This document shows positions 4,803-6,771 of a stretch of DNA of 7,023 bases, piece by piece (the first letter of the stretch is position 1; each line of letters begins with the position of its first letter). The stretch lies in NCBI RefSeq assembly GCF_003334785.1, contig NZ_QOWV01000037.1; one strand, written 5' to 3'. Under the pieces are notes generated by a model. The model ran no database searches, had not been told where the DNA came from, and saw only the letters and a program-made list of their open reading frames with translations. The translations under genes were made by a program, and so were the position numbers. The DNA comes from Escherichia coli. GTDB lineage: Bacteria; Pseudomonadota; Gammaproteobacteria; Enterobacterales; Enterobacteriaceae.

Positions 4803-5704
4803 CCTCACCATTTATTCAACAAATTGCTGATAACCGGGTATGTCAGGTACTCAGTTGCCTTCCTGAAAAATTTGTGGTTGATTTTGCAAACGGTATTGAT
4901 GTTGCACAGGAGCATAACCGCACGGCCGGGGGGCGCACGTTTTTCCGGCGTTTAAAAGAAGGTCTGACTGGCAAAGGCGCTGTACGCCAGAATGCCATCA
5001 ATGCTTCGCTTGCACAGGGCGTTGAGGCGTCCCTGCGCTGGCTGACGGAGCTGACAACGTCGCTTGCCACCACAAATTACGCGATTACCCGGGTAAACGA
5101 CAGAGTCAGTTCACTGGTCAGTGATACTGCCAGGCTGGCGCATTATTCGGCAGACACGCGGGAGCAGTTACTCACCCTGGCAGAACAGGTTCATCAGAAA
5201 CTGAATCATCTTGAAGAAAAACTCCACCGTGTTGACCAGGTTCAGCGGGCACAGTTACATCTTGAGCAGATATTCTCATGGTGGAGCGCCGGGCGATACG
5301 CGTCCATTTCCCCTGCCGGACGTTGTTATGTGGCGCTTGAAGAGCTTCGCTGGGGCGCGTTTGGTGATGTGATACGTCAGGGTGAAACAGGCCAGGTTAA
5401 CCAGTTACTGGATATCCTCAGACATAAAGCATTAACGCAAATGGCACAGGAGAATGGCGGTAGCGCAACAGTACGTCTGAACACACTGGACTGGCTTGGT
5501 GGTCAGAGCCGGGAACAGGCTGATAACGAATGGCATGAAGCGGTTAACTGGCTGGGGGACTGGTGCAGTGAAGAGCGGCATCCTGTGATCTGGTCAACCA
5601 CACAGGCTGCAGAACACTTACCGGTTCGTATGCCCCGTCTCTGCTCTGCAGAACGCCTCTCTGAAAGTATGGTTGATGAAATATTTCAGAAGGGGGAGGC
5701 ATGA
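4799..5704 (+). CDS. Dynamin-associated partner protein of unknown function (possibly RdcB/YjcZ-like)
   Basis: 301-aa ORF with a GTG start at 4799 overlapping the upstream TGA stop (GTGA). GGAG at 4787-4790 lies 8 nt upstream. No catalytic motif recognised. Size and position immediately downstream of a dynamin-like GTPase resemble the chromosomal yjdA-yjcZ (rdcA-rdcB) pair of E. coli; this is an architectural analogy, not a verified homology. Confidence 0.75.
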   Translation: MTSPFIQQIADNRVCQVLSCLPEKFVVDFANGIDVAQEHNRTAGGRTFFRRLKEGLTGKGAVRQNAINASLAQGVEASLRWLTELTTSLATTNYAITRVNDRVSSLVSDTARLAHYSADTREQLLTLAEQVHQKLNHLEEKLHRVDQVQRAQLHLEQIFSWWSAGRYASISPAGRCYVALEELRWGAFGDVIRQGETGQVNQLLDILRHKALTQMAQENGGSATVRLNTLDWLGGQSREQADNEWHEAVNWLGDWCSEERHPVIWSTTQAAEHLPVRMPRLCSAERLSESMVDEIFQKGEA

Positions 5705-6771
5705 GTACAGAAATGAAAACGGGGCTGGTGCTGTCCGGCGGCGGGGCGGTGGGCGCTTATCAGGCGGGAGTGGTTAAGGCACTGGCAGAGTGCGGCGCAC
5801 AGATCAGTATGGTCTCAGGAGCCAGTATCGGGGCTCTCAATGGTGCCATTATCACGGCCTCTCCCGATCTGTCAGAAGCCGCCTTACGCCTGGAGGCGCT
5901 CTGGGATCATCTGGGGAATAATCAGGTTCTGTCGGTAAACAGATCGGTTTACTTTTCATTGCTGAAAAAACTGGTTCAGGCCATGAACCTCTGCCAGATC
6001 CCCGGACGTGCGGGCGCACTGCTTACGACGCTTTTTCGCCATATATCGACAATCAACGGGTTCGACAATCCGATGATTCAGCCGCTGTTGTCAGATGAGC
6101 CCCTGACAGCGCTGATGGATCATTATCTTGATACAGATGCTCTGGCCGACGGGCTACCGCTGTACGTGTCGCTGTACCCCACAGAAGGAGGCATGCAGGA
6201 TATTATTGACTGCATTCGTGCTGAACTGGGTGCCGGAACCACGAAAAACGCTGTTTTTCAGCATATCCAGAGTCTGCCCCGCGGGCAGCAGAAAGAAGCC
6301 TTACTGGCGTCAGCCGCGCTGCCTCTGCTGTTCCGTCCCCGCGAGGTTCAGGGAACAATGTACGGTGATGGTGGGATGGGCGGATGGCGAAACAGGCAGG
6401 GGAATACTCCCGTGACGCCACTGGTGGATGCCGGATGCAATATGGTGATTGTGACGCATCTGAGTGACGGTTCTTTATGGGATCGTCGGGCTTATCCGGA
6501 CACCACAATCCTTGAAATCCGTCCCCGGAAAAGGTTGAAACAAATCGGGGACGAAGGCAAAAGTGGCGGTCTGCTCAGTTTTACATCGGCACATACCGAC
6601 GCCTGGCGTCAGCAGGGCTACGAGGACACGATGCTGACGATGGAGCATATCCGGAAACCGCTGGCAGCACGTCAGGCACTGACCCGGTCAGAGACGGTAT
6701 TGCAGAAAAGCCTGGAGATAACTGAAGGTGCAGATTCGGCACTGAGAAACGCGATGGCCCGGATTAAATAA
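5701..6771 (+). CDS. Patatin-like phospholipase (PNPLA family, Ser-Asp dyad)
   Basis: 356-aa ORF. Strong SD AGGGGGAGG at 5691-5699; ATG at 5701 overlaps the upstream stop (ATGA). Gly-rich oxyanion motif LSGGGAVGAY (aa 12-20); nucleophile elbow G-A-S-I-G with Ser42 at nt 5824-5826; DGG motif in MYGDGGMGG about 180 aa after the serine, the usual patatin dyad spacing. Confidence 0.9.
   Translation: MSTEMKTGLVLSGGGAVGAYQAGVVKALAECGAQISMVSGASIGALNGAIITASPDLSEAALRLEALWDHLGNNQVLSVNRSVYFSLLKKLVQAMNLCQIPGRAGALLTTLFRHISTINGFDNPMIQPLLSDEPLTALMDHYLDTDALADGLPLYVSLYPTEGGMQDIIDCIRAELGAGTTKNAVFQHIQSLPRGQQKEALLASAALPLLFRPREVQGTMYGDGGMGGWRNRQGNTPVTPLVDAGCNMVIVTHLSDGSLWDRRAYPDTTILEIRPRKRLKQIGDEGKSGGLLSFTSAHTDAWRQQGYEDTMLTMEHIRKPLAARQALTRSETVLQKSLEITEGADSALRNAMARIK

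Follow-up and report, generated by a model that had tools for sequence, protein, structure and literature searches.

The patatin-like (phospho)lipase gene that closes a three-gene operon in the window, as the whole analysed stretch of 7,023 nucleotides of Escherichia coli DNA (contig NZ_QOWV01000037.1, assembly GCF_003334785.1) is called here, belongs to a patatin family that is, across the loci compared, an obligate cassette with a dynamin-like GTPase and a YjcZ/RdcB-like protein. The glycine-rich loop of this patatin has Val (Val17) at a position where patatins commonly have a basic residue. Judged from the aligned family, this is a real departure from the norm, yet a recurrent lineage trait of Enterobacterales and not an oddity specific to the gene. 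The window gene is predicted, with moderate confidence, to encode a catalytically competent, cytoplasmic acyl hydrolase of the patatin type that acts as the output enzyme of a three-protein module. Val17 itself is of modest interest, and the surrounding cassette is the more interesting subject.

A partnership between the patatin and the upstream proteins had been supposed in a first reading of the letters alone (the sequence-only reading), and the case for it is now strong: synteny is conserved, genes overlap, and natural fusions occur. Genes for dynamin, YjcZ protein and patatin stand next to one another at every one of the 37 loci examined from other organisms, which belong to the Beta- and Gammaproteobacteria. 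Starting from patatin homologues, ten distinct contexts were reached (L002-L007, L009-L014 and L017-L021 in our numbering of loci), and all ten have the triad in the same order. They comprise Pectobacterium, Vibrio vulnificus, V. parahaemolyticus, Providencia, an IncF plasmid and five metagenomic lineages, and patatins with Lys or Arg in the loop are included among them. The E. coli loci L001 and L101 likewise have the triad. When the genomes of GTDB species were scanned with an alignment of YjcZ proteins, 79 loci came up, and hidden Markov model classification split them cleanly. All 26 island-type loci (L022-L043 and L046-L049; YjcZ protein 35-95% identical to that of the window) encode dynamin, YjcZ protein and patatin, and their hosts include Pseudomonas, Comamonadaceae, Gallionella, Allochromatium, Thiodictyon and Marinospirillum. 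The other 53 loci (L044, L045 and L050-L100; 31-40% identity) have just the two genes of rdcAB and lack a patatin; their hosts are Enterobacteriaceae, with Citrobacter, Enterobacter, Kosakonia and Leclercia among them. No swapped effector was found behind the YjcZ gene at the 26 island-type loci with the two peptide patterns used, which may miss divergent variants. Because the triad is spread more widely, rdcAB might be a derivative of it without the lipase.

The genes of the cassette are also tightly packed. At most of the GTDB loci the cassette genes overlap or lie no more than about 20 nucleotides apart, and the genes for the YjcZ protein and the patatin overlap by 1-8 nucleotides in L002, L004, L006, L011 and L013. 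The ATGA overlap with the preceding gene that the sequence-only reading had pointed out is present in the window and indicates translational coupling, while the fixed stoichiometry that had been read from it is not shown. In some lineages the two proteins have become one. P0167 (707 residues) and P0227 (665 residues) contain PF13990 and PF01734 in a single protein according to precomputed Pfam assignments and are encoded behind dynamin genes, of which two stand in tandem upstream of the fusion at L009. The N-terminal half of P0266 matches the RdcB-like protein of the window by BLAST. The N-terminal halves of P0232 and P0258 align with the fusion proteins and gave no BLAST match to the window's RdcB-like protein. 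These five long patatins measure 657-707 residues, with loci at L009 (2-6801) and L012 (81-4410). Patatins of the Lys/Arg type and of the Val/Ile type have the same dynamin and YjcZ partners, so that partner linkage is a property of the whole family and independent of residue 17. For the same reason, the suggestion that Val marks a need for activation by the upstream proteins does not hold.

That the window protein is a patatin follows from profile, fold and motifs together. Pfam Patatin PF01734 matches residues 9-226 (E=2e-23), and RefSeq labels the same gene 'patatin-like phospholipase family protein'. The AlphaFold model, built on 45 orthologues, has a mean predicted local distance difference test score (pLDDT) of 74.9 with a well predicted core; it is weak at residues 78-127, a family-specific insert, and at 282-293, and residues 296-355 form a long C-terminal helix. 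Its top Foldseek matches in the PDB are PlpD, CapV/CapE, VipD, ExoU and Pat17, with a probability of 1.00. The Ser-Asp dyad stands in GxSxG and DG[AG] motifs and the loop conforms to GXGXXG, which in most bacterial patatins contains three consecutive Gly; the basic residue at the fifth loop position, a common and not a defining feature, is replaced by Val17. As the sequence-only reading had stated, GASIG with Ser42 and DGG are both intact, which a motif script confirmed. Among the 45 orthologues Ser42, Asp223, G13-G15, A16 and G18 are invariant, as are G40, A41, S42 and G44 of the elbow and the columns D223, G224, G225, G227, G228, W229, G234, N235, T236, P237, P240 and L241 (Table 1). Three clusters of shorter E. 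coli patatins (P0017, P0034 and P0050) were also encountered, with 210-262 residues and hundreds of members, some of them on contigs longer than 600 kb. They suggest that the patatin gene is broken in some lineages, and their label in the source databases, 'ferredoxin reductase', looks like a misannotation.

Table 1. Features of the operon and of the patatin in the window (aa, amino acids; ORF, open reading frame)
Feature	Position	Strand	Details
Dynamin-family GTPase, RdcA/CrfC (YjdA) paralogue	2406..4802	+	798 aa; Pfam Dynamin_N E=3.7e-17
GTGA overlap, dynamin stop/RdcB-like start	4799-4802	+	read from DNA
YjcZ/RdcB-family protein	4799..5704	+	301 aa; Pfam YjcZ PF13990 E=1e-69, full length
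ATGA start/stop overlap, RdcB-like gene/patatin gene	5701..5704	+	read from DNA; ATG 5701-5703, TGA 5702-5704
Patatin-like (phospho)lipase coding sequence	5701..6771	+	356 aa; last gene of the operon; ORF, Pfam, fold, RefSeq annotation
Gly-rich loop G13-G-G-A-V-G18	5737..5754	+	script motif search and direct DNA reading
Nucleophile elbow G40-A-S-I-G44	5818..5832	+	Ser42 codon 5824-5826
D223-G-G, catalytic Asp	6367..6375	+	residues 223-225; opens family-specific segment DGGxGGWxxxQGNTPxxPL
Terminator-like hairpin followed by T run	6791..6816	+	20 nucleotides past the patatin stop; probable operon end

Val17 is encoded by GTG at 5749-5751, as read directly from the DNA. Since a change from Lys (AAA or AAG) to this codon takes two base changes, it is not the product of a one-base sequencing error. 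In phmmer alignments with chains from the PDB, the residue paired with Val17 is Arg in PlpD and Lys in VipD and ExoU, so the replacement of a basic residue by Val, as first proposed, was borne out. According to a review, phospholipid phosphate is held by Arg in cPLA2 and by Lys in iPLA2, and the oxyanion hole consists of two glycines (PMC9862071). As glycines build the hole, the hole proper is intact in the window patatin and the phosphate-contacting basic residue alone is replaced. Calling the loop an unusual oxyanion motif was therefore an overstatement, because the glycines that form the hole are canonical and only the phosphate contact is missing.

The family search gave 10,393 matches at E<=1e-3, 203 of them at <=1e-30, and the representative set consisted of the 150 best at 50% identity. 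A basic residue occupies loop position five in 104 of 124 family representatives (K 84, R 20, V 8, L 7, I 2, M 1, C 1, A 1), counts that rest on the top-ranked matches within the window patatin's own family. The housekeeping patatins of E. coli K-12 keep Arg (RssA GSGAARG, YjjU GGGQRG), and GGGAVG is thus not common in ordinary housekeeping patatins as far as this small sample of two proteins goes. Closer orthologues are mostly aliphatic at this position, with GGGAIG in other Enterobacterales, GGGAVG in E. coli and GGGAMG or GGGALG in Vibrio. Fitch parsimony on a 190-member tree placed Lys/Arg at the root and gave about 13 changes to a non-basic residue, a rough count on a rough tree constructed by the unweighted pair group method with arithmetic mean. 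In the same tree the window patatin falls within a 42-member clade that is aliphatic throughout at position 17. The idea that Val is special to this gene fails on these data, as the enterobacterial clade has I, V or L, Vibrio has M or L, and the basic residue has been lost repeatedly. The GTDB species sample, which was reached through the neighbouring YjcZ gene and was blind to the patatin motif (n=26), contains 20 patatins with Lys, 4 with Ile and 2 with Val; the six aliphatic species are all Enterobacterales (Escherichia albertii, Serratia oryzae, two species of Pantoea, Erwinia and Budvicia).

Columns 171, 70, 136 and 226 (the Met after DGG) and gains of Lys or Arg at 81 and 103 are most tied to the aliphatic state. 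They were considered as compensation for the lost Lys and rejected as evidence, because most aliphatic sequences form one clade and the associated columns are confounded by shared ancestry. As observations in themselves, residues 81 and 103 in the insert 78-127 (window about 5941-5943 and 6007-6009) are mostly Lys or Arg in the aliphatic clade, and residue 226 (window about 6376-6378) is Met in that clade and Gln or Leu in relatives with the Lys/Arg motif. Val17 probably tunes the binding of the lipid head group or is neutral for it.

The two upstream proteins belong to the families of RdcA and RdcB. The GTPase motifs of the dynamin are intact (G1 GTMKAGKS with K82, G2 T103, G3 D236-TPG, G4 N299-KFD), and the protein is 32% identical to K-12 RdcA over its full length, with K82 and T103 aligned. 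Its score against the NCBIfam CrfC/RdcA equivalog NF007368 is 556.8 bits, below the cut-off of 1146, so it is not an RdcA orthologue. The RdcB-like protein is 31% identical to K-12 RdcB, gave no NCBIfam match, and is predicted to be all-helical with a long helical hairpin (AlphaFold, pLDDT 71). Its presumed part is that of an adaptor linking GTPase and lipase.

The cassette is mobile, being carried by genomic islands and plasmids, where its neighbours are often known defence genes. Of 5426 complete E. coli genomes, 2442 have the operon at a coverage of at least 80%; a genome may hold up to 5 copies, and these are nearly always chromosomal. The allele of the window is rare in the E. coli collection (4 records at >=99% identity, about 2600 at 90-95%), and several diverged paralogous copies of the operon circulate in the species. 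The 7 kb of the window match strain TW10722 at 99.9%, and the operon part (2406-6771) matches at 100%. In E. coli the operon is located downstream of cah (Ag43 family) on a CP4-44-like island at tRNA-Ser that also carries antirestriction, RadC and CbtA/CbeA genes. The operon was also found on 39 plasmids of Klebsiella, Enterobacter, E. coli, Aliarcobacter and Nostoc. The mobilizable IncFIA/FIB plasmid of E. coli AW1.7 has the full triad between IS5 and IS30 transposase genes (L021, 1372-5743), with a GGGAIG patatin about 61% identical to that of the window, and the same version occurs on Klebsiella and Enterobacter plasmids.

Elsewhere the neighbours include bacteriophage exclusion (BREX) genes with a relaxase and a WYL gene at one locus, and a type I restriction-modification (RM) system at another; further loci have type I RM with Mrr and BrxR, SIR2 with a HerA-like gene, or a WYL gene with an integrase. 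A small islet of Allochromatium humboldtianum, inserted between the housekeeping genes ileS and rimK, holds the triad together with the candidate defence gene PDC-S17 and a Fic gene (PDC-S04/SoFic-like; L031, 7959-10035). A transcriptome study of E. coli MP1 from 2026 found this operon on two islands, with EcoKI and Druantia next to it, and lists it among the most strongly induced genes in Kapi1 lysogens of that strain (PMC12922286).

A regulator gene of the WYL/BrxR type adjoins the triad in Vibrio vulnificus (L004, 3682-4650), a metagenomic contig (L019, 13179-14051) and Pseudomonas aestuarii (L026, 373-1272). In these three unrelated hosts such genes may be dedicated transcriptional regulators of the triad.

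Two further features of the window lie upstream of the operon. A cah/Ag43-family autotransporter gene is broken at 1224-2298, leaving ORF fragments at 1224-2093 and 2059-2298 with a junction at 2065-2068 that brings together positions separated by about 1.85 kb in the intact ETEC1746 cah (L001, 10068 to 11915). Positions 16-927 (+) encode a YeeP-like small GTPase typical of CP4-44-type islands, which seems unrelated to the triad; PADLOC gives it a weak resemblance to LeoBC (E=7e-8) and to LeoA (E=4.4e-5), while its Era/Der-like NCBIfam matches are far below the cut-offs.

By analogy with RdcA/RdcB and with other regulated patatins, a gated-effector architecture, in which the GTPase-adaptor pair controls the patatin, is given about an even chance. 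In the resting state, the GTPase and the YjcZ adaptor would keep the lipase off. A change in nucleotide state or assembly, brought about for example by phage infection or nucleotide depletion, would switch it on, and the active lipase would degrade membrane lipid and stop or kill the cell, as in abortive-infection defence. Val17 would replace an ancestral Lys expected to contact the lipid phosphate, as a state derived in Enterobacterales and tolerated by the family; it would leave the oxyanion hole in place and would not be the cause of partner dependence. Perhaps Val17 also matters in degree, as it may tune head-group preference or lower basal activity. The role of such a module would most plausibly be abortive-infection-type defence or the maintenance of mobile genetic elements, a point held with lower confidence than the gated architecture. 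The evidence for defence is indirect and consists of the neighbourhoods with BREX, RM, Mrr, SIR2-HerA, WYL/BrxR and PDC genes and of the induction in lysogens. A more far-reaching proposal, rather doubtful at present, is that the triad could be a widespread abortive-infection system of Beta- and Gammaproteobacteria in which a GTPase that senses the GTP state and a helical adaptor license a membrane-destroying patatin. RdcA/RdcB would then be a lipase-less relative of the switch, and the change from Lys to Val or Ile would retune the lipid target or the leakiness of the enzyme.

Several observations weigh against the gated effector and its defence role. No segment of transmembrane strength in hydrophobicity was detected in any of the three proteins, so that membrane targeting is assumed, and the Gly-rich loop of the patatin model has moderate confidence only. 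The analogy to RdcA rests on about 32% identity. Adjacency to defence genes was seen in about 6 of 10 informative contexts, which is anecdotal and without statistics, and the neighbours of the E. coli cassette are genes for adhesins, antirestriction and toxin-antitoxin functions, not classic defence systems. No record of the phage collection carries the cassette, and scans of all four window proteins with PADLOC (2023) and NCBIfam gave no membership in a defence system or equivalog. The literature searched holds no experiment that ties the cassette to phage defence, lipase activity or a physical complex; no paper characterising the triad was found in it, and passing mentions came up only in PMC12922286 and PMC13182975.

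Alternatively, the dynamin could deform or repair the inner membrane or drive vesicle release, as proposed for LeoABC in enterotoxigenic E. coli (ETEC) and DynA in Bacillus, with the patatin editing phospholipids locally for fission, fusion or repair and not acting as a suicide effector. Membership of the dynamin family, a weak PADLOC similarity to LeoBC (E=4.7e-4), the presence of the surface adhesin Cah on the E. coli island, and the part of bacterial dynamins in vesicle formation and membrane protection described in literature cited in PMC12922286 would all suit such a role. It is nevertheless unlikely, as RdcA, the nearest relative to have been characterised, works in signalling as a soluble GTPase and does not remodel membranes, a hydrophobic paddle or transmembrane segment was not detected, and the spread on mobile genetic elements beside RM, BREX and SIR2-HerA better fits defence cargo. 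Somewhat less probable again is that Val17 reflects a change of substrate, with the enterobacterial enzymes favouring lipids that have no phosphate close by, for example neutral acylglycerols, lysolipids or the acyl chains of lipoproteins. Every patatin of the 42-member clade is aliphatic at this position, and the loop of human ATGL/PNPLA2 reads GCGFLG, although a literature search for this motif gave nothing. A basic residue stabilises the phosphate in cPLA2 and iPLA2 (PMC9862071), and the patatin-domain triacylglycerol lipase SDP1, a eukaryotic enzyme, has been described with the looser GXGXXG only (PMC4016141). However, the basic residue was replaced repeatedly and at scattered points of the family (by V, I, L, M, C or A, in about 13 events), while neither the remaining active site nor the partner genes differ. 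Such a pattern resembles tolerance rather than a concerted switch of specificity, and no clear compensating or co-varying active-site change is separable from phylogeny.

It is considered very improbable that the enteric lineage has an attenuated or dead lipase that is mainly a scaffold or decaying. The importance of the basic residue in cPLA2-type enzymes and the truncated patatins in E. coli clusters on long contigs (for example P0017, with 262 residues and 354 members) would speak for it. Ser42, Asp223, all the glycines and the long family segment are, however, invariant across the aliphatic clade at 45-92% identity, and thousands of genomes, with plasmids as well, retain the gene at full length. 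This catalytic invariance and full-length retention indicate purifying selection on an active enzyme. Least probable of all, if by a narrow step, is that the GTPase-adaptor pair acts on a diguanylate cyclase as a regulator of cyclic diguanylate signalling and that the patatin is an unrelated passenger. The RefSeq name 'diguanylate cyclase regulator RdcB family', the Pfam YjcZ match and the homology to RdcA/RdcB point in this direction, but identity to these two proteins is just 31-32% and the CrfC/RdcA score is far below its cut-off. Furthermore, the rdcAB pairs of 53 Enterobacteriaceae species never occur with a patatin whereas the island-type pairs always do, adaptor-patatin fusions exist, and a diguanylate cyclase gene next to the triad was seen at no locus.

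The cassette is carried by nearly half of complete E. coli genomes and by many other Proteobacteria, and its RefSeq names ('dynamin family protein', 'diguanylate cyclase regulator RdcB family protein', 'patatin-like phospholipase family protein') hide the fact that it is a single unit. The patatin controls known so far act through host Rab5 (VipD), ubiquitin (ExoU) or cyclic nucleotides (CapV). Gating of the lipase by the GTPase-adaptor pair, if real, would be a new way of patatin control in bacteria and the cassette a new candidate defence or addiction module. The RdcA/RdcB switch of biofilm signalling would then be a general GTP-sensing licence for different enzymes. In addition, the natural occurrence of Lys versus Val, Ile, Leu or Met at one position of a family that is conserved in other respects provides a ready-made series on the role of the 'phosphate-binding' residue of patatins.

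Among systems already described, several candidates for a direct assignment of the proteins were rejected by model cut-off or context, among them ExoU/VipD. As a CapV/CapE effector of a cyclic-oligonucleotide-based anti-phage signalling system (CBASS), the patatin scores 15.7 bits with NF041079 (cut-off 200) and matches the PADLOC phospholipase effector at E=5e-4 with no domain passing; no gene for a CD-NTase or other cyclase was seen in the window or the annotated contexts. As part of Eleos, the dynamin matches PADLOC LeoBC at E=4.7e-4 with no domain passing, and there is no LeoA match. Eleos (formerly 'Dynamins'; LeoA and LeoBC) and LeoABC of ETEC do share with the cassette a dynamin-family GTPase on a mobile E. 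coli island with a proposed defence role, but they have neither a YjcZ protein nor a patatin. As RssA, the patatin scores 31.6 bits with NF007623 (cut-off 272), matched over its N-terminal 50 residues only. RssA (YchK) and YjjU come from the same Pfam family and host as the window patatin, whereas they keep the basic residue and lack GTPase and YjcZ neighbours.

The patatin also resembles bacterial patatin-like phospholipases of solved structure. PlpD (the closest), VipD, ExoU and CapV/CapE share with it the patatin fold, the Gly-rich loop, the GxSxG serine and the DGG aspartate, although they are only 12-24% identical to it. PlpD, VipD and ExoU have Arg or Lys where the window patatin has Val. 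In addition, it has no secretion, autotransporter or Rab-binding domain, unlike these relatives, and differs by the insert 78-127 and the long C-terminal helix 296-355. Patatins are commonly controlled by co-activators that order a flexible Asp segment, as in VipD with Rab5, ExoU with ubiquitin and the PNPLA co-regulators (PMC12871566). According to the matched PDB entries CapV/CapE is switched on by cyclic nucleotides. CapV needs cyclic GMP-AMP. VipD, ExoU and CapV/CapE are inactive until an activator binds, and the same behaviour is proposed for the window patatin.

For the two upstream proteins the model is RdcA/RdcB of K-12, in which RdcA binds RdcB tightly and activates DgcE when not GTP-bound, GTP being an inhibitor (PMC6510439). 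The cassette consists of the same two families in the same gene order, with overlapping genes and full-length homology, and the GTP-binding Lys82 and catalytic Thr103 of RdcA are conserved in the window GTPase. Its GTPase has a YjcZ-family partner as RdcA does, but the two-gene operon is replaced by one with a patatin in all 26 island-type loci. K-12 rdcAB is a two-gene core operon whose target DgcE is encoded elsewhere, while the cassette is mobile and has its patatin in cis. In a combination that appears to be without published characterisation, the cassette would resemble RdcA/RdcB in its switch and CapV or VipD in its regulated lipase.

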